Origin: Stegostoma tigrinum
Lineage: Eukaryota
Reading direction: 5' to 3'
Length of the DNA: 64,000 nucleotides
Assembly (NCBI RefSeq): GCF_030684315.1
Contig: NC_081362.1
Span: 54,463,744-54,527,743 of the forward strand
The position numbers and the translations under genes were made by a program. The notes beneath the pieces were generated by a model. That model was not told the DNA's origin. It worked only from the letters and a program-made list of their open reading frames with translations, and ran no database searches. Positions 2,079 through 62,558 of this stretch are shown in pieces. Each line of letters starts with the position of its first letter. Position 1 is the stretch's first letter.

Positions 2079-2776
2079 CTCTGACTTGTGTATCCCAGTT
2101 CTCTTGCTGCTTTCCCTTAGAATTTCCCAGGTGGCACTTGATGAAAGGGCAGGCACATACTTCACACAAGCTCTTTCTCAGCAGGAATCAGGCTTCAACA
2201 AGCACTGAGCCCACATTGCACAGTAGAAGAAACCACAAGCATTTTACAGAACCACACAGCTGTCAAGAGTCAGTCTGAGCTTCATGCAAGCCATTGCTGC
2301 TCCAGAGATTGCCATCTCAAATTCTGATATCACTGGCCCACTGTTTGGGAAGTGTTGTTTTTATGCAAATGAACATTGTTATTGCAGTCTATCCTGAGAG
2401 AGTTGCTCTTCCTCCAGAATATTATGGTGTGCGATAGTGATTTAGTTATTGAATTAGGTGCTTTGAAGAAAAGTTAGAAGGGAGCATATCTAACAAAGGA
2501 GTTACCATCAAACTGATCTAGGAGAGTCCAGAATGTACTCATGTCAAAAGTATAAAATAAAAATAATTAATTTTAGTGGAATAAAACACTAAGCCCAGAT
2601 AAATTGGCAGATCATAGTGGGCTAGCAAGATAAAAATAAGAATAGTGGAGTATCTGCAGGTCAAGTGCATTACAGACCAGAGTAAAGGGGCTATGTCAAA
2701 GACAAGTTCCACAATAATCATGGGGAAGGAAAGACTAAACAGGTAGCATCTTAAAGGAAGGACTTCCATTTGTTTT

Positions 2777-3349
2777 CAGAGATAATGGGAACTGCACATG
2801 CTGAAGAATCTGAGATAACAAGGTGTGGAGCTGGATGAACACAGCAGGCCAAGCAGCATCTCAGGAGCACAAAAGCTGATGTTTCGGGCCTAGACCCTTC
2901 ATCAGAAAAGTTGGTTCCATAGGCAGGTGCTGAGAAGGTGATGTGGCTGTGGTACCTGGTTTGCTTCAGGACATGGTCGAGCAGTTTCAAGGCCGAAAAG
3001 ATGACGAGAGTTGCAGTGGGAGAGGGATCCCCTGAGGTTGGTCCGGAGGGAGGAGGGTAACTTCTTCAGGTTAGGCATCCTGGAAGAGGCTTCGCAGTGA
3101 GGTTAAAATTGTGATCACAGATAATGGGAACTGCAGATGCTGGAGAATCTGAGGTAACAAAGTGTGGAGCTGGATGAACACAGCAGGCCAAGCAGCATCT
3201 TAGGAGCACAAAAACTGACGTTTCGGGCCTCGACCCTTCATCAGAAAAGGCCTTTTCTAATGTAGGGTCTAGGTGCGAAACGTCAGTTTTTGTGCTCCTA
3301 AGATGCTGCTTGGCCTGCTGTGTTGATCCACCTCCACACTTTGTTATCG
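2777..3349 (-). mobile_element. Internally deleted Penelope-like element: pLTR - 5' ORF remnant - pLTR, plus inverted pLTR arm
   Basis: Direct repeats at ~2777-2909 and ~3116-3250; inverted arm 3251-3349. TSD cttccatttgtttt (2763-2776) / ctttcatttgtttt (3350-3363), 1 mismatch. ORF remnant from ATG at 3078 (minus): MPNLKKLPSSLRTNLRGSLSHCNS../KLLDHVLKQTRYHSHITF/LSTCLWNQL, frameshifted. Confidence 0.8.
3217..3244 (-). ncRNA. Minimal hammerhead-ribozyme-like core (PLE type)
   Basis: Minus strand: CTGATGA-AGGGTCGAGGCCC-GAAACGTC. Conserved CUGAUGA and GAAA boxes, GGG/CCC stem II, palindromic ACGU stem III and GUC cleavage triplet. Stem I is only about 2 bp. Confidence 0.65.
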
Positions 3350-3651
3350 CTTTCATTTGTTTTGTCCCTTTTTCAGGATAGCCTAGTCTTTCCAGCCAGT
3401 TAAGCACTTGCCCTTTTTAATTGTAGGAAGTTGTGGCAGTAAATTTGCATAGTGCTCCAAACAACAGAAAAAAATAAGAAAGCAATCTGTTTGTAGTAGA
3501 TCTTCAGGGATAAGTATTAACCAGTTCACTTCTTTTGTTGTGAAAACTACCTTTCTTGCTGGTATATGGAGGATGATGGGCTGCATTGAAGTGGAATGGT
3601 GGATCCGCTTGGCATTGGCAGTCTGGGGCATGGAGCATTGGACATTGGGAC

Positions 3652-3965
3652 AGAATCATAGAATCCCTACAGTGCAGCAAGAGGTCATTTAGCCCATCAA
3701 ATCTGCACGGACTGTTTGAAGAGCATCCCATAAAGATGCAGCAACCCTAACCCTATCCCTATAATCCCACATGACCATGGCTCATTCACCCAACCTGCAT
3801 TTTTTAGGATTGAGGGAGGAAAGCAGGGCACCCAGCAGAAACCCACTCAGAACAGGGAGAGCATGTAAACTACACACAGGCAGTCACATAAGGCTGGAAT
3901 CTAACTCCGGTCCCTGGCGCTGTGAAGTAGTAGTGCTAACCATTGAGTCATTGTGCATGCTGCCC
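3652..3965 (-). mobile_element. HE1-type V-SINE (tRNA-derived)
   Basis: Reverse complement of the SINE at 7820; more diverged. Confidence 0.85.
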
Positions 3966-5050: not shown

Positions 5051-5371
5051 TAGAATTGGAATTAGAATCCCTACAGTGTGGAAACAGGCCCTTCGGCCCA
5101 ACAAGCCCACACCGAACCTCGGAGCATCCCACCCAGACCCATCCCTTTATAACCCACCTAATCTATACCTCCCTGAACACTATGGGCAATTTAGCATGGC
5201 CAGTCCACCTAACCTGCACATCTTTGGACTGTGGGAGGAAACCGGAGCACCCGGAGGAAACCCACGCAGACACAGGGAGAAAGTGCAAACTCCACACAGA
5301 CAGTCGCCCAAGGCTGTAACTGAACCTGGGTCCCTGGCGCTGTGAGGCAGCAGTGCTAACCACTGAGCCAT
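5051..5371 (-). mobile_element. HE1-type V-SINE
   Basis: Minus strand tggctcagtggttagcactgctgcctcacagcgccagggacccaggttc (A/B boxes), V-domain gtgggtttcctccgggtgctccggtttcctcccacagtccaaagatgtgc, and a CR1-like tail. Confidence 0.92.
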
Positions 5372-7819: not shown

Positions 7820-8132
7820 GGGCAGCACAGTAGCTCAGTGGTTAGCACTGCAGCCTCAGCACCAGGGACCTGGGTTCAATTCCAGCCTCGAGTGACTGTC
7901 TGTGTGGAGTTTGCACATTCACCCCGTGTCTGCATGGGTTTCCTCCGGGTGCTCCGGTTTCCTCCCACAGTCCAAAGATGTGCAGGTTAGGTGGACTGGC
8001 CATGCTAAATTGCCCATAGTGTTCAGGGGTATGTGTATTACGGAGGATGGGTCTGGTTGGGATTCTTCAAGGGGTGGTGTGGACTTGTTGGGCCGAAGGG
8101 TCAGTTTCCACACTGTAGGGAATCTGATCTAA
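7820..8132 (+). mobile_element. HE1-type V-SINE, full length
   Basis: A-box tagctcagtgg at 7831, B-box ggttcaattcc at 7873, V-domain core, tail gggccgaagggtcagtttccacactgtaggg. Confidence 0.92.
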
Positions 8133-9379: not shown

Positions 9380-12190
9380 ATTCAAGACAGAGGAGAAAAG
9401 AGAAATATTGTTGAAATCGGGGATAGTATATAGTTAGGGAAATTGACACTGTTCTCTGTGGCTAGATTCAAGAGTCCAAAAACAGTGTTGCCTGCCTGGT
9501 GACTGGGTTCAGGATATCTCATGTGGGCTGCAGAGGAGTTTGGAGCAGGAGGGGAAAGAACTGGTTGTCATGGTTCATGTGGTTCCAATTATCTAGGTGG
9601 AAAGAGGTTTTGCTGGGGGAATATGAATAGCTTGGTGTGAAATTTAAAAAAAATCAGGAAGGTAATAATGTCTAGACTACGACCTGAGCCACAAGCTAAA
9701 CGGCACAAAGTCAATAAGATTAAAGAGAGAAATGTCTGGCTCAAAGATGGGTGTGGGAGAAACCGGTTTGAATTCATGGGATTTTGGCACCAGTACTGGG
9801 GAAGGAGAGAGATGGTCTGATGGGATGGGCTCCACCTGAATTTTATGCTGGGACCAGAGTCTTGGCGAATCGTATAACTATGGTTATGGATAGTGCTTTC
9901 AACTAACATTGGGTGTGGTAGTTGTCAGTTGTATGGAAAATCAGAAAAATTAAAGCGGGGGAGAACTCAACAGAGGCTAATTAAAGTTTCCATAATAATA
10001 TGGAGTATGGAAAGGGTCAGGAGTCTAACTTAAGGTACAGCAGATGACTATGACAAGGCAGGAACAGTTAAGACAGGATTGAGGGTGCTGTACTTAATTT
10101 ACCTTATTTTGTGTACTGTGCATTTAACTTGAGTGCAGATTGAAATTGACAGGTATGATGATGTGGGTGTCATGACAAGTGTCTTCAAGGAGATCATGAC
10201 TGGGAATTAAATATCCAAGGATACGTACGCTGTCAAAAGGAGAGGCAGAGGAGGTTGGGTTGCCTTGTCGTAAGAAATGGAATTAAATAGATAGCAAGAA
10301 AAGTGATAGAATCTGTGTGAATAGAGTTGAGGAACTATAAAGGGAAAATGACCCTGCTGGGCATTGTGTAAGGCCCCCTGGCAGTAGTCAGAATGTGGGG
10401 AAGAAAATAAATCAGGAGATGGACAAGGCATGAAAAAAGGCACTGTTACAGTAATTGTGGAGTTCAAATTGCAAGTGGACTGAGAAAATCAAGTTGGTAC
10501 TAGATCTCAAGAAGAAATCTGTGGAAGGCCTAAGAGAAGGTTTCTTTTTGGAGCAATTTGTGGTAAAGGCTACACGGGAACATGCAATTTTGGATTTGAT
10601 GTGTAATGAGGGAAACTTGATTAGGAAGCTTAAAGAGAAGGAATCCTTCAGGAACAGAGACTATAATATGATAGAACACGCAGTTCGATTTGAGAAGGAG
10701 AAGCTGGAATCAGATGTAACAATATTACAATTGGGTGAAGGTATCCACAAAGATATGACAGGAGCTGGCCAGTACTTGAGGAGAGGGAATGTAGTAGGGA
10801 AAATGATACTTCAGAAACCCTTTTTCTTCAGAGACCTTTTTTTCTGAAGAAGGGTCCCGACCCAAAACATCAGCTTTCCTCCTCCTCTGATGCTGCCTGG
10901 CCTGCTGTGTTCCTCCCGCTCTACAGCTTGTTATCTCAGATTCCAGCATTGGCAGTTCCTACTGCCTCTGGCTGAGTCAGCATGGCTTTGTCAAGAGGCA
11001 GTTATGCCTCTCTAATCTGTTAGAATTCTTTGAAGTAATGAGCAATTTAAACCAAGGAGAACCAATGGATGTGGTGCATTTGGACTTCCAGAAGGCCTTT
11101 GATGTAGTGCCACAGGAGGCTGCGAAATAAAATAAGAGCCCATGGCGTGAAGGGCAAGTTAGTGACATGGATAGAGGATTGGTTGACTGGCAGAAGGCAC
11201 AGAATTGGGTTAAAGCAACCTTTTTCAGAATTGCAGCCCATGACTTGCGGAGTTCTGGAAGGGTCCACGTTGGATCACTAATAATCTACACAAAGGAGCT
11301 AAGGACATTATTGTTGCTGAATTTGCAGAGGGCACAGTGGAGAATAGGTAGGGTTGAGGAAGCAGGGTGGCTGCAGAAAGACTTGGACAGACAAAGAGAG
11401 TGGGCGAAAAGTGGTGGATGGAACACAATGTGGGAAAGTATGAGGTTATGCACTTTGTTATGAACAATAGAGGTGTAGACAGTTTTCTAAATGGGGAATG
11501 ATTTTGGAAACCTAGTTCTCAATTCTGAAGGTTAACATGCAGGTTCATTTGACAATTAGGAAGGCAAATGCAATGTTAGTATTCTTTTCCATAGGGCTGC
11601 AATTAAAGAGCAGGGATGTCTTTCTAAGGCTCTATAAGGCTCTGGTCAGACCACTTGTGAAATGATATAAGCACTTTCATGACCCTTGTGTAAAGAAGGA
11701 TATGCAGGTGTTGGAGGGGCGGCGGGGGGGCTCCTGATGAGATTTACAAGAATGATCCTGTTGATGAAGGGTGCTTCGTATGAGGAGCAGTTGTGGACTA
11801 GAAGGGTGAGGAGGATTTGATAGAAAGTGAAGAATACTGAGGGGCCTAGAGTGGACATTGAGAAGATGCTTCCACGAGTAGGAGAAAATAGGACCCAAGG
11901 GCGCAGCCTCAGAATAAAGGGACGACCCTTTAGAACTGAGATGAGGACGAAATTCCTCAGCTAGAGGGTGGTTAATCTGTGGAACTCATTGCTACAGAAG
12001 ACTATGGAGGGAAAATTATTGAGCATATTTAAGACAGAATATTAAGCTAAGCTCTTGATTAGTAAGGGGATGAAGTGTTATAGGGAGAAGGCATGAGAAG
12101 GGGCCTGCTTTACATATCAGCCATGGTTGACTTTTGGAGCAGGCTCGATGGGCTGAATGGCAAAATTCTGCTTCTATATCTTATGATCCA
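9380..12190 (+). mobile_element. Long decayed CR1 LINE with ORF1 esterase remnant, endonuclease, RT and 3' end
   Basis: From ~9410: IGDSIVREID..CCLPG..VVMVHVGSN (SGNH esterase of CR1 ORF1). Endonuclease FLEQFVVKATREHAILDL; RT VVHLDFQKAFDVVP; 3' tail ggagcaggctcgatgggctgaatggc. Internal deletion around 10800-10970. Confidence 0.85.
10843..10969 (+). mobile_element. Single Penelope pLTR arm (second subfamily) with hammerhead-like remnant
   Basis: CTGAAGA-AGGGTC-CC-GACCC-aAAACATC then ctgatgctgcctggcctgctgtgttcctcc..ttatctcagattccagcattggcagttcc. Homologous to the arms of the hairpin elements. Confidence 0.75.
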
Positions 12191-13502: not shown

Positions 13503-14632
13503 TTAGGGCACATGGTACTGGGGGCAAAATACTGAGTTGGATTGAAAATTGGCTGGCTGACAAAGCAAAGAGTAGTGATAAACGGGTCCCTTTCGGAATG
13601 GCAGGCGGTGACCAGTGGGGTACCACAAGGTTAGGTGCTGGGACCGCAGCTGTTTACGATATATATTAATGATATAGACGAGGGCATTAAAAGTAATATT
13701 AGCAAATTTGCTGATGACACAAAGTTGGGTGGCAGTGTGAAATGTGAGGAGGATGTTATGAGAATACAGGGTGACTTGGACAGGCTAGGTGAGTGGACGG
13801 GTGCTTGGCAGATGCAGTTTAGTGTGGATAAATGTGCGGTTATACACTTTGGCGGCAAGAACAGGAAGGCAGATTACGATCTCAATGAAGTCAAGTTAGG
13901 TAAAGGGGAAGTACAACGAGATCTAGGTGTTCTTGTACATCAGTCAATGAAAGCAAGCATGCAGGTAGAGCAGGCAGTGAAGAAAGCTAATAGCATGCTG
14001 GTCTTCATAACAAGAGGAATTGAGTATAGGAGCAAGCAGGTCCTTCTGCAGCTGTACAGGGCCCTGGTGAGACCGTACCTGGAGTACTGTGTGCAGGTTT
14101 GGTCTCCAAATTTGAGGAAGGACACTCTTGCTATTGAGGGAGTGCAGCGTAGGTTCACGAGGTCAATTCCCAGAATGGCGGGCCTATCATATATTGTAAG
14201 ATTGGAGCGACTGGGCTTGTATACACTTGAGTTTAGAAGAATGAGAGGGGATCTGATTGAGGCGTATAAGATTATTAAGGGATTGGACACTCTGGAGGCA
14301 GGAAGCATGTTTCCGCTGATGGGCAAGTCCAGAACCAGAGGACACAGTTTAAAAATAAGGGGTAGGCCATTTAGAACAGAACTGAGGAGAAACTTCTTCA
14401 CCCAGAGAGTGGTGGATATATGGAATGCTCTGCCCCAGAAGGCAGTGGAGGCCAACTCTCTGGATAGTTTCAAGAAAGAGATAGATAAAGCTCTTAAAGA
14501 TAGTGGAATCAAGGGTTATGGGGATAAGGCAGGAACAGGATACTGATTGTGGATGATCGGCCATGATCATAATGAATGGTGCTGGCTCGAAGGGCCGAAT
14601 GGCCTACCCCAGCACCTATTGTCTATTGTCTA
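13503..14632 (+). mobile_element. Young 5'-truncated CR1 LINE; RT C-terminal ORF 13635-14546 intact
   Basis: 303-aa open frame LGPQLFTIYINDID..KFADDTKLGG..LYRALVRPYLEYCVQVWSP..RNFFTQRVVDIWNALP. 3' UTR ends in a ctattgt repeat tail. Frameshift near 13565. Confidence 0.95.
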
Positions 14633-17409: not shown

Positions 17410-18125
17410 TGGTGAGAAGATGTAAAGAGCCATCAGGATGACTTAGACAAGTTGAGGGAGTGGGGAAAATGTGTAGCAAATGCAGAGTAACGTGGAAAAA
17501 TGTGAAGTTTCTCACTTCAGTAGGAAAAACAGAATAGTAGTATTATTTAAATATTGGAATTTTCACCGTGAGCATTGAAAGCAAGCATGAAGGTGCAACA
17601 GGCAGTTAAGGCCTGTGGCATTTTGGCCTTTATAGCAAAAGAGTTTAAATTCAGGAGCAAGAGGACTCTTTGCAGCTGTACTTTGCCTCAGTGAGATGAT
17701 ACTTGGAGTATTGTGTACTGTTTTTTGGTCTCTTTAACAAAGCAATTAAATGCATACCATAGAGTAGATGTAGCGAAGGTTCGCCAGACTGATTACTGGG
17801 ATGTGATAATGGGAACTGCAGATGCTGGAGAATCCAAGATAATAAAGTGTGAAGCTAGATGAACACAGCAGGCCAAGCAGCATTTCAGGAGCACAAAAGC
17901 TGACGTTTCGGGCCTAGATCCTTCACCAGAGAGGGCCCTCTCTGGTGAAGGGTCTAGGCCCGAAACGTTAGCTTTTGTGCTCCTGAGATGCTGCTTGGCC
18001 TGCTGTGTTCATCCAGCTTCACACTTTATTATCTTTGATTACTGGGAAGGCTGGTTTGCTGTATGAAGAGAATTTGGGTCAACTGGGCCTGTATTCACTG
18101 GAGTTTAGAAGAATGAGGGGAGGAC
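17410..18125 (+). mobile_element. Decayed CR1 RT fragment hosting a hairpin element
   Basis: LLYEENLGQLGLYSLEFRRMRG continues after the insertion. Confidence 0.8.
17802..18035 (-). mobile_element. Penelope-derived hairpin element (inverted pLTR arms)
   Basis: Perfect centre cttcaccagagaggg|ccctctctggtgaag (axis 17935/17936). TSD tgattactggga at 17790-17801 and 18036-18047. Confidence 0.88.
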
Positions 18126-20671: not shown

Positions 20672-20762
20672 TGCTTTTCTGCGCCTCTGATGCTGCCTGG
20701 CCTGTTGTGTCCCTCCAGCTCCACACCGTGTTATCTCTGACTTCAGTATCGGCAGTTCTTCC
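20672..20762 (+). mobile_element. Partial Penelope pLTR arm (10843-type)
   Basis: cctctgatgctgcctggcctgttgtgtccctccagctccacaccgtgttatctctgacttcagtatcggcagttc. Confidence 0.7.
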
Positions 20763-21414
20763 TAAACTATCTCTGATAGTGAACCAGGTTTCTTTTAAAC
20801 AACAGATCATAACTTTGTGCTTGTCTTCTTTTGCCTAGTAACACAAGAGATATAAATATAGGTGTTTCTGTCCATTTTTATAGCTGGGGTTTTCCTGGAA
20901 CAGATCACTAACCTGTCACTGGAGACTATATCTTTCGTCACACACTCTACAGGCTTGGCTGACCAAGAGACTGTCCTGTTCTCGTGACCTACATATGAGA
21001 TTTGTAGGTTGATAACCAGGAAACTTGTTACTGTTACTTGGTCTGGCCAATATGTGACTCTGGCATATGTGGTTGTCTTTTAACCACCCTCTGAAGTGGC
21101 TTCACAGTCCTGTCAGTTGTATCCAAACTCCTAATTTTCTCAGGGCAACTCAGTATAGGCAATTAATGTAAGTTTTACCAGATATATCACCCTTCAGAAA
21201 ATGACTTAGTGAAAAAGAGACTTTTGGTGCTGAAAGTATTTAACATGATCTTAAAACCAAACAACTAGGCAACTTGTTCGTAATATCCTACCTGCACTGC
21301 CTTCAGCCTAGAATAAAGATTGTCTGGTTTTTACACTCCCTAGCCAGTGGATTTGAAGGCAAGAGGCAAAGAGCAAAGAATAATGCAGTTAGTGGCTCAT
21401 AAAATATACATACA

Positions 21415-22929: not shown

Positions 22930-24130
22930 CTGTCACTAAGATTGAGAGACAAAGTAAAGGGAACTATACCAAAGTGTACATGGCGTTTGTAATAAGGTAG
23001 ATTATTTAAAGGCAAAGTAGATGAAATTGGGTGTGATCTAATCACCATTATTGATAACATGCCTGCAGTGTGACCAAGGAATATTTGACAATTAGAAAAT
23101 ACAGGCATAAAGGAAGAGCAGGTAGTGACAAGCTAATGATTAAGAATAGGATCAAAATGTTAGAGAGGAAAGATCTCCAATCGAAAGAACAAAATGCGGA
23201 ACCTGTTACAATGGAGCTAAGGGGCAGCAAACACTGGTAGGAGTTATTTATAGGCCATCAAATAGTTGCGTCAGTATGGGTCATGGTTTTAGTCAGGAGA
23301 TTAGAGAAACATGTGGCACAAGTAATACGGGTATCATGGGTGAGTTCAGTCTGTGTATAGATTGGATAAACCTAATGAGCAGGTATGATAGAGATAATGG
23401 GAACTGCAGATGCTGGAGAATCCAAGACAACAAAATGTGAGGCTGGATGAACACAGCAGGCCAAGCAGCATCTCAGGAGCACAAAAGCTGACGTTTCGGG
23501 CCTAGACCCTTCATCCTCGGATGAAGGGTCTAGGCCCGAAACGTCAGCTTTTGTGCTCCTGAGATGCTGCTTGGCCTGCTGTGTTCATCCAGCCTCACAT
23601 TTTGTTGTCTTGAGCAGGTATGATGTTGTGGATGACTTTCTAGAGTGTAGGGATTGTTTGTAGAGCAGTATACGGAGAAAAATTCCCGTGTGCAAGCTAT
23701 TTTAGATCTAGTACTAAGAAATGTAAAAGGCCTAATTAATAATTTTGTTGCAAACGAACCTTTATAGAAAATGAAATCATACAGTGCAGAAGAGGCCCTT
23801 CAGCCCATCAAGTCTACATTGACATGTGAGAAAGACCTGACCTTTAACCTAATCCTATTTACCTACACTTGGCCTGTAGCCTTGAATTGCCAAGGGGATA
23901 AATGAGCAAAATATGATATAGAATTTTACATTAGAACAAAGAAAATTGTGAATGTATGAGGAGCAAATTGATTGAAATAGATTGGATAAATACATTAAAA
24001 ATATGACAGTGCATGGGCAATGATTTTTTTTAAAAGAATGAGTGCATAGTTTAGAGCAATTCTATGTTCCTTTAGGGCACAAAAACCCAAAAAAGCAGTC
24101 AGCTGTGGCTAACAAGGGAAATTTAGGATT
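22930..24130 (+). mobile_element. CR1 endonuclease-region fragment starting ~200 bp after the LPGAT1 exon
   Basis: tgtgatctaatcaccattattgataacatg..ggagttatttataggcc..atcatgggtgagttc..gctattttagatctagtac. Interrupted at 23390 and ~23765. Confidence 0.75.
23390..23610 (-). mobile_element. Penelope-derived hairpin element
   Basis: Arms of ~92 bp that are perfectly complementary by eye around a 2-nt loop (23517-23518). Perfect TSD tgagcaggtatgat at 23376-23389 and 23611-23624. Confidence 0.92.
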
Positions 24131-31022: not shown

Positions 31023-31255
31023 ATAATGGGAACTGCAGATGCTGGAGAATCCGAGATAACAAGGTGTGGAGCCGGATGAACACAACAGGCCAAGCAACAT
31101 CTTAGGAGCACAAAAGCTGATCTTTCGGGCCTAGACCCTTCATCAGAAAAAGGGTCTTTTTCGGATGAAAGGTCTAGGCCTGAAACATCAGCTTTTGTGC
31201 TCCTAAGATGCTGCTTGGCCTGCTGTGTTCATCCAGCTCCACACTTTGTTATCTC
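31023..31255 (-). mobile_element. Penelope-derived hairpin element
   Basis: Arms meet at catcagaaaaag-ggt-ctttttcggatg. Perfect 15-bp TSD acaacactattggaa at 31008-31022 and 31256-31270. Confidence 0.9.
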
Positions 31256-36982: not shown

Positions 36983-37095
36983 AAGCCAGAAGAACTGTAG
37001 ATGCTGTAAATCAGAAACAAAAACAGAAGTTGCTGGAAAAGCTCAGCAGGTCTGGCAGCATCTGTGGAGAAAAAGTCAGAGTTAATGTTTTGAGC
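36983..37095 (-). mobile_element. Single arm of the third Penelope-derived family
   Basis: agaactgtagatgctgtaaatcagaaacaaaaacagaagttgctggaaaagctcagcaggtctggcagcatctgtggag..gttaatgtttt; same architecture as 18465-18662. Confidence 0.65.
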
Positions 37096-40000
37096 CTGAT
37101 AGGTAATTATAGGCATTTATATTTTAAAAATTCTGAGGGGGGATAAAACCTAATGTATAGCTTTACATTTTAGAGTTGGAGTTGGTGAGTGCTTATGCAT
37201 TTGTTCTAACTAGTGTTACCAGCATGAGCATCTTGCTACATTCAAGACAATCAAATTATAGTTTTAATCTTGATATTGTTTTCTTCTGAATTTTGGATCA
37301 CCTGATTAAACCACAGTGGTAAAGTAGAAGGTTGAGCTCTGATCCATGTCATTACTGGAGTGACTATCGAGTAAATTAGTTTTGATAACACGCCACCATT
37401 ACAATGTGATGTTACTGAAATTTTCTTTTCAAACAACTCTGTTCTGGTTTATTTAAATATTTAATTGATAATGCAGTAGTATAATGCTGTGCATTAAAAC
37501 AATGGGTACAACAGCTTGAGCTGATATTGTTTAATTTCTTTTGAAGTTCTGAATCACCACCAATCAGAGCTGCTAAAGGTGAGAATCAATAAAGTGTCAA
37601 TAGGGATTGCAAGTAGACTTGAGTTGCTGTATTTTTTTTGATATCACTACAAAATATTTGAAGACAATGTCAATCATTTATATATTTAAACTATTGATTT
37701 TGATCATAAAAATGTGGTTAATGGCATGATTTTACTCGAAATTTGGGAGTGGAAGTCAGATTGAAAGGATTAAAACACAGTGCTTGAAGAAGTGGCTGTG
37801 CAACTGGGTAATAATGTGATAGAAAAGGGGAAGGAGGTATGTTAAATAATTGAGAGAATAGAGAGATTAGGATGGACAATAAGGAAAATGAGGTTTAAAG
37901 CTATGAGGAGGTGGAAGGCTGCTGTGAGTAGAAAATAACTAAAAACTGATAAGAGACAACATAGTATGGAGCTGGAGGAACATAGCAAGCCTGCTGTATT
38001 CCTCCATCTCCAGCATCTGCAGTTTTTGCTATCTCTAATATCTGAACCCAGTAGTTGGTGATATTTGGAAATTCCCTATACTTCTCCAAGGCAGGTAGTT
38101 TACATGGTCAGGAACTAACTCAAGAAAGAATCAACAGAATGGCTTACTGCCAACGTAGAACAGATCAGTCTGATCAGGATTTGGGCAAAACAGTGGAGAA
38201 AATAGAGGATACTCCTGAGGCTAGAACTGGATAAGGAGTTTAGGGGCTGCGAGATGCCAAATGGATAATTTCAATTTTGGAAATAAAGAAATAATTAACT
38301 CCTTGCACACCTGAGGATAGTGAATTATGAAGAGGAGAAATTTGTAGTTCATGAAATTGATGATATTGTTTAAAATGCTTGAAACCCCTTGTGGTTTTTA
38401 GTCAATGTACTTAGCAACAGCAGTTTTCCAATTATTCTACTGACCATTTTCCGTGCAGCGTTAAGGAAATGGTGCCTGTTCAGGAGCATAGGATTGATTA
38501 GTATTTATTCTATTTGCCAGGACTGCTAGTATGTGTGTATGGCTTGTCAGAAAAAAGCAATAATGTTCCGTGTGACAGGGGAACTGATAGTAACTAATTT
38601 GAGCCTAATTTGCATCCATTAGTGGTGTTTTAGCTTGTATTCTTGGCAGTGATCATTTTATTCTCTCACTTTTAGAGTCAAGAATAGAAATCCTGCTCTA
38701 GAATCTGTTTGAAACTTTGGTTGCTTGGTATTTACAGTTTCATCTAGAGCTCTAGGTTTAATCAGAACCATGTGGAAGCAAATTTTTGGTGATTCAGATT
38801 ATGAATAGTATTTTTAGAGTATGTAAATATTAATATGACAAATGTGATGCAGAAGTTAGAAGATAAGAGCCAGATGTAATTTTCTGAAATTGACGTAAAT
38901 GTTAACAAGAAATTCAAACATATAACTTGCGAATGAGGGGAGCTGTTAAGATGCTACATTCTGTCCACTTGCCTGTGTACCTCCAGAAACCCAGACCATA
39001 AGATTTGAATAAGAAAATAGAGGTCTTTGAATTGTGGATCCTAAACCACGTTAACAATTCAATATGAAAGTACGCTTAGATAAAGAAACGTAAGAAAATG
39101 CATGAACAAAAGAAACTGTACAAAGTGACACCCAGAAAGGAAAGTTTCAGTTTTTCGAGCATTTAATAAGATCTGAAAAGCTGCAGAGATTCTTTCCGAG
39201 GGAAAAGAGATCAACAGACAGAAGGGCTGACCTGCATATAGTTGGATACTGGTTGTCACAGAATGGTTGCAAATAGGTTGCAGTGGATGTGTGAAGATGG
39301 CGGAAGACAGATGAGGATAGCATAATGACGGCAGATCTGGCTGTAGTAGTTACAAACAGCAGCAGTAAAAATTGAGGGAGCACTTTCAGGTCAGGGTATC
39401 CTGATCTTAAAAATGGCATTCTAACTACACGTCATTTCCAAGTCCAGTGGACTCTGTCCTATCCTTTACGTGGATATCATTGTGTTTATGATTGCCCATT
39501 TTAGTTTGTATAGCAAACATTTAGCCGTGTTTGCACTCCTAACCACCTGCCAGTTAGGGTCTGTTGAAATGTGTCTTTATGTGACTTCTGTTTATGTCCT
39601 TCTGCAGCAATTAATATCGTATCAGCTTGAAGGCCTTCTTCAGATTTTAAAGCAACTTGCAATTTGTAAGAAACCCAAAATACACCAGTCTCTTGTTCCT
39701 GGTACTGTGTCCCTTTTTTTATTATATCTGCAGCTGGAAAGAACATTATCCTACAGCTTTATGTAACAAGATATATATTAATGAAATTAGTCATTTTCTG
39801 TACCTGTGATGACCTTCTCAGGAATTCTTTACTCAGTTGACTTTTCCAGATGTCACTTTGTAGAGTTCGTTTTGCTTGCGCAATTTCATGTACCACTTCT
39901 TCACTGAAACAGTTAACATCTGTGATATTCATGGATAATTTGCAGCCTATTTAGAGATGAAATGCAGTTCCATTTGTCAGGGCTTATACCCTGTTCAAAG

Positions 40001-55110: not shown

Positions 55111-55261
55111 TTAAGATTTATTATGAGCATCCTTAATGAAATTCCACTGGATATAATCTTAGGACTGTTTCTCAATAATAAGATTGACGTAACCCAAAAC
55201 AATTAAATTCTTGTGGAAAAATGACAGTGTAGGGCAGAAATTGTCAGGACAACTTGCGGAT

Positions 55262-55382
55262 GAAGGGTCTAGGCCTGAAACGTCAGCTTTTGTGCTCCTG
55301 AGATGCTGCTTGGCCTGCTGTGTTCATCCAGCTTCACACTTTATTATCTTGGATTCTCCAGCATCTGCAGTTTCCATTATCA
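55262..55382 (+). mobile_element. Single full Penelope pLTR arm (main family)
   Basis: gaagggtctaggcctgaaacgtcagc..ggattctccagcatctgcagtttccattatc; 8-bp TSD ttgcggat at 55254-55261 and 55383-55390. Confidence 0.85.
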
Positions 55383-56053: not shown

Positions 56054-56340
56054 TGAATATCAATTGCTCACCAATCCATCTGTGTTGCTATCTTGTTTGG
56101 GTAAAATATAGAGGTGGAATGTACAGTGGAAAGAGCTCAGCAGTTTCTCATACAGAGGTCCTGTAACAAGAAGGAAATTAGTCATGTATTTGATAATGGT
56201 AGGTTCTTCTAAAGTTTTTGAGTGCTTTTTCCAGTTTTGACTTTAAACAGTAATATTCATCTTCTATGGTAATGTGTAACCTACTATTTACACTTTAAAT
56301 AAATTTAAATTTATTTAATCGAGGTTGGGGAAGTGGCAGA
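56054..56340 (+). repeat. Direct repeat, copy 1 (~287 bp)
   Basis: Matches 57727-58012 with about 10 differences by manual alignment. Confidence 0.95.
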
Positions 56341-57726: not shown

Positions 57727-58012
57727 TGAATATCAATTGCTCACCAATCCATCTGTGTTGCTATCTTGCTTGGGTAAAATATAGAGGTGGAATGGACAGC
57801 GGAAAGAGCTCAGCAGTTTCTCATACAGAGGTCCTCTAACAAGGAGGAAATTAGTCATGTATTTGATAATGGTAGGTTCTTCTAATGTTTTTGAGTGCTT
57901 TTTCCAGTTTTGACTTTAAACAGTAATATTCATCTTCTATGGTAATGTGTAACCTATTATTTACACTTTCAGAAATTTAAATTTATTTAATCGAGGTTGG
58001 GGAAGTGGCAGA
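57727..58012 (+). repeat. Direct repeat, copy 2 (~286 bp)
   Basis: Matches 56054-56340. Confidence 0.95.
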
Positions 58013-62250: not shown

Positions 62251-62558
62251 GGGGCAGCTCAGTGGTTAGCACTACTGCCTCAGCACCAGTGATCCAGGTT
62301 CAATTCCATCCTCGGGCAACTGCCTGTGTGGACTTTGCACATTCTCCCCATGTCTGCGTAGGTTTCCTCAGGGTGCTCCAGTTTCCTCCCACAGTCCAAA
62401 GATGTGCAGGCTAGGTAGATTGTCCATGCTAATTTGCCCATAGTGTTCAGGGATGTGTAGGTTAGGTGGGTTACAGGAATGGGCCTGGGCAGGATGGTCA
62501 GAAGATTGGTGTGGACTTGTTGGGCCAAAGGGCCTGTTTTCACACTGTAGATATTCTT
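62251..62558 (+). mobile_element. HE1-type V-SINE
   Basis: gctcagtggttagcactactgcctcagcaccag..ggttcaattcc..tttcctcccacagtccaaagatgtgcagg..gggcctgttttcacactgtag. Confidence 0.9.

Follow-up and report, generated by a model that had tools for sequence, protein, structure and literature searches.

Architecture of the Composite Insertion

An insertion of 573 bases occupies positions 2777–3349 of the window, the 64,000-nucleotide stretch of Stegostoma tigrinum DNA that was analysed, and is flanked by 2763–2776 and 3350–3363. The insertion is a Penelope-like element (PLE) that keeps both of its ends and the start of its protein gene and from which the middle is gone. Read on the minus strand, the order of its parts is an inverted arm, a direct arm (A1), a spacer, a start codon at 3078, 168 nt of ORF, and a second direct arm (A2). 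The inverted arm (about 3251–3349, plus strand) is a tail-less pLTR with a decayed core that lies head-to-head with A1 across a short palindrome; the two are 93% complementary over 96 nt, with 0 nt between them. A1 (3116–3250, minus strand) includes tail sequence and continues toward the ORF through the spacer (3079–3115, minus strand), which runs from the tail end to the start codon and which contigs of other copies span together with the ORF start. The coding piece (2911–3078, minus strand) is the first 168 nt of a PLE ORF, corresponds by protein matches to parent residues 1–57, and contains two frame breaks. A2 (2777–2910, minus strand), the 5′ end of which abuts the ORF piece at the junction, also includes the tail and is identical to A1 at 125 of 134 sites, leaving nine differences.

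The tail, ~35 nt in length (2777–2812, minus strand), is defined by arm ends and by contig loose ends. It is missing from inverted arms, which finish ~36 nt short in all four hairpins of the window, and contigs leave the arm at 2811–2814 with 1,000–1,750 loose ends per site. The whole unit sits inside a single TSD pair, one copy adjoining the tail end (2763–2776) and the other adjoining the inverted arm (3350–3363).

A first-pass annotation of this DNA had described an inverted arm, a pLTR, an ORF start, and another pLTR within one TSD pair, and both this anatomy and its coordinates hold. The 14-bp TSD that it reported is present but imperfect, matching at 13 of 14 positions, a level reached by 7 of 20,000 random boundary pairs when boundaries may move within ±10 nt. 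The abrupt passage from ORF to second arm, placed near 2910, is confirmed at 2910/2911 but falls 5 nt upstream of the CTGATGA box rather than at the box itself. The boxes start at 3244 and 2905, so that the two hammerhead cores claimed to lie ~340 nt apart in direct orientation are indeed spaced by 339 nt.

Other Repeats in the Window

Three fold-back pLTR copies, at 17802–18035, 23390–23610, and 31023–31255, have exact TSDs of 12, 14, and 15 bp and differing palindromic centres. A pLTR monomer at 55254–55382 has a TSD of 8 bp, and this TSD and the hammerhead box overlap at the 5′ junction of the monomer. Older pLTR subfamilies that have diverged further are represented at 10840–10970, 20673–20776, 36992–37069, and 37953–37991, the first of which has a CTGAAGA box together with a consistent helix II change. 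The ORF start occurs once in the window, compared with four other young insertions of the arm.

Repeats of other kinds are also present. An open frame of 303 aa at 13635–14546, related fragments of which recur across the window, resembles, in our reading, the C-terminal region of a LINE reverse transcriptase of the CR1 type. An abundant short repeat, which we presume to be a shark SINE, has copies at 5150–5371, 7832–8125, 62256–62557, and 3852–3951. A direct repeat of 258 nt (56054–56311 and 57727–57984) is 95% identical, with its copies 1,673 nt apart. A bacterial promoter scan of the window, which is not relevant to this element, returned nothing.

The Coding Remnant and Its Parent

The peptide encoded by the ORF piece is split over two reading frames, its start and end in one frame, which is the 58-aa ORF P0001, and its middle in another. 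Contig comparison places the frame breaks near 3005 and 2933. The peptide of the first-pass annotation is therefore not a single frame, but reading across the breaks matches an intact shark protein. With the first frame as the query, the one match among three candidates was this Stegostoma tigrinum protein, P0002, which matches both window frames, the middle piece at 24 of 26 residues. P0002 as the query found three further shark proteins among 392 candidates, and a phmmer search with it gave 100 hits, 14 of which, picked by length and score, were taken into a Pfam scan. Pfam searches of the N-terminal pieces found no family in three proteins.

The connection to a reverse transcriptase (RT) comes from P0132 (Chiloscyllium punctatum XP_072440417), residues 1–25 and 26–49 of which are 72% and 79% identical to the two window frames, respectively. 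P0132 is a single chain comprising the shared N terminus, a DKG motif, and an RT domain, without a nuclease. Its RVT_1 match (E 6.3e-6, 26.5 bits) is below the cut-off of 29.6, and P0131, the representative of its cluster, passes that cut-off at 32.9. Because P0132 links the N terminus and RT in one chain, the peptide does lead into a PLE RT elsewhere, the point on which the proposed parentage had been staked. These matches support the assignment of the ORF piece as the N terminus of a shark Penelope-like ORF and of the hairpin arms as the pLTRs of a Penelope-like element. The derivation of the arms from a Penelope parent is thus borne out, and the description of the locus as an internally deleted PLE stands in outline, as an internally shortened PLE with an ORF start between its two ends. 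No RT was found in the 64-kb window by tblastn with four PLE proteins. Splicing as the cause of the gap in the ORF was rejected by inference; in the parent proteins the next codon is one for Ile, Leu, or Pro, and no codon for these residues begins with GT.

The shark proteins found stop short of the linker and nuclease, and GIY-YIG was seen only in distant full-length relatives. Among distant hits of at least 880 aa, which share ~30% identity with P0002, GIY-YIG was matched in four of five (one above the cut-off) and RVT_1 in three (one above the cut-off). P0076 (929 aa) proved to be an unrelated repeat match and was removed from the full-length set. The four full-length relatives all contain DKG, RT, a CX4CXXC linker, and, at the C terminus, GIY-YIG, and the shark RT shares 50% identity with one of these relatives across 580 aa. 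Given this linker and this RT identity, the parent likely belongs to the Neptune/Nematis clade. A Poseidon assignment was dropped, since the full-length relatives carry the linker motif that marks Neptune and Nematis.

Several features of the shark proteins were noted in passing. The Rhincodon typus protein P0003, a predicted isoform of an acid phosphatase, has ~130 residues of the PLE N terminus at its end and is either an annotation fusion or an exonised element. In P0004–P0007, P0056, and P0132, the N-terminal domain and RT are separated by a long insert rich in Thr, Pro, and Ala; this insert is missing from the four full-length relatives and recalls the low-complexity inserts of rotifer PLEs. 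Metagenome scans, in which shark DNA is not expected and which are thus uninformative, gave 340 pattern matches with P0002, none of them confirmed, and no match to the exact junction pattern.

Hammerhead Cores and the Unit-Length RNA Proposal

Core 1 (3216–3246, minus strand) has C3 at 3244 and a predicted cut between 3217 and 3216, and its palindrome is intact. Core 2 (2877–2907, minus strand) has C3 at 2905 and a predicted cut between 2878 and 2877. In core 2, the helix III palindrome is broken by a G-to-A change at 2880, leaving a C-A mismatch in helix III of the predicted dimer; the palindrome was probably intact at the time of insertion, the mismatch belonging to the present-day copy. The pLTR hammerhead is of a minimal type I, with the core motifs, an extra base after A9, a palindromic helix III, and a helix I of 2 bp, the length seen in both cores. 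Helix II is paired in 95.5% of the cells of the arm alignment. Helix I is 2 bp in 11 of 11 aligned arms, in which the second pair is retained as either U-G or C-G and the third never pairs. Covariation in the aligned arms showed no excess over shuffles (100–139 of 500), and Rfam at its gathering score gave no hits in the window, the hammerhead being identified from its core motifs. A PLE variant that combines a short helix I with a palindromic helix III has been described in Drosophila virilis (PMC4209133). A 2-bp helix I, as a family trait like that of the D. virilis variant, does not by itself exclude cleavage.

The spacing of the cores had prompted the proposal of dimeric hammerhead folding and release of a unit-length RNA. 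In its full form, the insertion would derive from a non-LTR retrozyme dimer, in which paired hammerheads release a 339-nt RNA that is circularised and reverse-transcribed round the circle before insertion. The direct orientation and 339-nt spacing fit the size of animal retrozymes (170–400 nt, with a chondrichthyan mean of 363 bp), the minimal hammerhead is the described variant noted above, and PLE hammerheads can be protein-assisted (PMC11167929). Copying from one circle predicts, however, that the arms are identical downstream of the cut, whereas A1 and A2 differ at sites where A1 matches the inverted arm. At three of the nine differences, the A1 state is common to the inverted arm and missing from A2. 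Both A1 and the inverted arm have T at 3214 and A at 3201, minority states at positions where A2 has the majority state; A at 3201 is a common family variant that accounts for 24% of depth. The third site, 3161, is weak because it also varies between the arms of another hairpin. The direct arms thus most likely came from different pLTR templates, which argues against a single circular template for both.

Other observations also weigh against the circular route. The 134-nt direct repeat around the 339-nt unit amounts to ~1.4 units and not to a tandem array, and TRF detected no tandem arrays in 2600–3500. The dimer would have to accommodate the C-A mismatch in helix III and a helix I of 2 bp. 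In the predicted folding of the whole-element, read-through transcript, the inverted arm pairs with core 1. The dimer fold lies 39–75 kcal/mol above the ensemble, an uncalibrated value that is given little weight because it has no positive control. Cleavage in vitro was absent for eight of nine predicted Xenopus dimers in published work. The retrozyme-like dimer and its unit RNA are accordingly poorly supported, and a circular-RNA origin for this insertion is highly improbable. The hammerheads here appear instead to be passengers that were copied uncut.

Copy Number of the Junction

Contigs of four runs were aligned to 2640–3135 at 82% likeness. The insertion is present in two samples of the same species, the contigs of which span the left boundary without difference. 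Single-copy flank depth is 21.5 and 9.43 in these samples. Relative to the flank, summed depth is ~2.6–3.2 million-fold on the arm and 53,000–78,000-fold at the ORF-start peak, sums that are not copy numbers. At 2911, the summed depth falls to 294× and 284× flank, 0.6% and 0.4% of the ORF-start peak, and includes contigs that merely end there, so that it is not a copy number either. A related species has 237× flank depth at 2911. The junction is bridged by none of the 32 long pieces listed, beyond which there are 254,090 more, the window's own junction among them. In two other species, the match of the flank contigs ends at 2759 and 2762, leaving 152 and 121 letters unmatched, which hints at an empty insertion site in these species.

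The first-pass annotation had proposed a search for other loci with the same ~2910 junction. A depth at 2911 of ~0.4–0.6% of the ORF-start peak excludes a large family; one copy up to a few hundred carriers is compatible with it. A small family of non-autonomous mini-PLEs, in which a linear RNA transcribed from the pLTR is mobilised in trans by the protein of a full-length PLE, would lie within this range. The insertion retains both pLTRs, the tail, and the ORF start; in Adineta, the presence of pLTRs is enough for mobilisation in trans (PMC3846280), and non-autonomous PLEs exist (PMC8557442). Against this reading, the 64-kb window has no second copy, with one ORF start compared with four other young arm insertions; no listed piece bridges the junction; and the depth ratio at 2911 is similar in a species in which the orthologous flank does not seem to enter the element. 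A mini-PLE family is considered fairly unlikely.

Among the joints listed, others that connect the ORF start to the arm are found at 3079, 3045, and 3042, each at ~4–11× flank depth in both samples, so that some short units may have multiplied. Breakpoints at 3042–3045 and 3079 are recurrent on the ORF side, and one of them is also found in the related species; the 3042 joints may reflect microhomology. Joints that start at 2877, the base that immediately follows the predicted cut, make up one of 15 listed joints and four of 12 rows of a second joint list. These run to 3042, 2776, 2779, and 2830, two of them at ~6–9× flank depth in both samples, and are a possible footprint of in vivo hammerhead cleavage. 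In some copies, joints that lead from 2906 back to 2874/2875 imply a back-to-back pair of cores ~36 nt apart. The joints at 2877 and on the ORF side count as leads because they are the best-supported of several hundred and have short sides (20–30 nt where given) and low likeness.

Taken at their most far-reaching, these joints would belong to a population of short pLTR–ORF start–pLTR units made by template jumps, at 339 nt here and at 3079, 3045, and 3042 elsewhere, with some units at 5–10 copies and some starting at the hammerhead cut. Such units would be intermediates in the birth of a retrozyme from a PLE, and the 2877 joints would record in vivo cutting by a hammerhead with a 2-bp helix I. 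This scenario is a speculative one with little probability. In vivo hammerhead cleavage was absent from RNA-seq of the Anolis element (PMC11167929).

Origin of the Composite

The position of the junction and the differences between the arms are the main guides to how the insertion arose. The distance from the start of the arm to the hammerhead core downstream of it is 6 nt in A1 and 5 nt in A2. Other copies in the two same-species runs break off mostly at 2906–2909, with 436–549 contigs per listed site, mixed flanks, and an agreement of 0.34–0.38, and the junction at 2910/2911 sits 1–4 nt from these commonest 5′ boundaries. The junction thus coincides with the usual 5′ boundary of the family, where a random deletion would rarely end.

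The composite is most likely a rare copying accident rather than a circular-RNA element. In the specific form that we favour, and to which we give an even chance of being right, it is a dead-on-arrival insertion of a Neptune/Nematis-type PLE, present in a single or very low copy number, that was shortened during reverse transcription by a template jump. The PLE protein would nick the target and prime cDNA synthesis at the tail, by internal initiation as in the Anolis PLE, in which internal RT start sites flank the tail and the template is uncut RNA (PMC11167929). The first pLTR would be copied to the usual 5′ stop, at which point RT may have jumped to codon 57 of a PLE transcript and then copied back through the ORF start and the upstream pLTR to the same usual stop. 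The cDNA would then fold back to give the inverted arm, and the insertion would be sealed with its 14-bp TSD. One shared 5′ stop would explain monomers, hairpins, and the composite as three outcomes. Template jumps are proposed for PLEs in the Discussion of PMC3846280; in the same paper, similar shortened copies are put down to microhomology-mediated deletion, and an antisense template is argued for the fold-back. Against the jump, gene conversion could mimic the states common to A1 and the inverted arm, and the loose ends at 2906–2909 are in part due to differences between subfamilies upstream of the core.

The same end product would result if a longer or full-length insertion had later lost its middle in DNA, either through a repair deletion or because a pLTR monomer landed in codon 57 and then recombined with the 3′ pLTR. 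A typical full insertion has this very outer layout, and PMC3846280 describes a shortened copy that carries a microhomology deletion. The existence of monomers that begin near the same place, such as that at 55254–55382, and the extreme abundance of arms mean that the nested route accounts for both the junction position and the differing arms. A plain deletion, on the other hand, must end by chance within 5 nt of the usual 5′ boundary, and the nested route would take two events and lacks a second TSD. Loss in DNA is thus unlikely, if still a serious competitor.

Whichever route produced it, the insertion ties the very abundant fold-back repeats of the shark to a named parent, which is of value for annotation. 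The template-jump reading makes it a record of a step that is still unsettled in PLE copying, a stop just upstream of the hammerhead followed by a fold back, a join, or a jump. With the very high copy number of the arm, a shark assembly would allow the copying model to be tested by junction counts. The locus would matter more if short units were multi-copy or started at the ribozyme cut, as the route from PLE to retrozyme has so far been argued from phylogeny only.

Comparison with Known Systems

Animal non-LTR retrozymes (PMC7229834 and bioRxiv 10.64898/2026.07.22.740005) share with the shark composite a type I hammerhead, a unit of ~340 nt, a PLE origin, and a long TSD. Unlike them, the shark copy, which is known from DNA, has no tandem array, a minimal rather than canonical hammerhead, an inverted arm and a coding remnant, and arms from what are most likely different templates.

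The Anolis Poseidon element PAc (PMC11167929) resembles the shark element in that its tail marks internal RT starts, its pLTR contains a hammerhead, and uncut RNA is the template. The PAc ORF starts inside the hammerhead, whereas the shark ATG is 166 nt downstream of the core. Neptune/Nematis PLEs have a C-terminal GIY-YIG with a CX2-5CxxC linker between RT and EN (PMC8557442). The four full-length relatives follow this plan, with DKG, RT, the CX4CXXC linker, and GIY-YIG, and the shark proteins found end before the linker. No description of this shark PLE family was found in the literature on PLE topics, a search that stopped short of Repbase, Dfam, subscription papers, and preprint supplements.

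The pLTRs, inverted 5′ copy, 30–40-bp tail, and TSD of EN+ Penelope-like elements are all present here, as judged against PMC3846280 and PMC8557442. In Adineta vaga, the typical arrangement is an ORF with a pLTR on either side, next to which lies an inverted pLTR that is shorter by 37 bp; the tail is 31 bp long, and there is a single TSD (PMC3846280). The Pen2a/Pen2 elements depicted there (Fig. 2a and 2c) match the shark copy in the succession of inverted pLTR, pLTR, ORF, and pLTR within one TSD and in the palindrome at the turn, and an internally deleted copy of the same layout is known in rotifers. The shark copy differs from those copies in that it lacks nearly the whole ORF and the 3′ region and in that its right breakpoint is the usual 5′ boundary of the family; its TSD is 14 bp, compared with 9–10 bp in A. 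vaga. The shark composite is thus a fresh example of a layout that has already been described.
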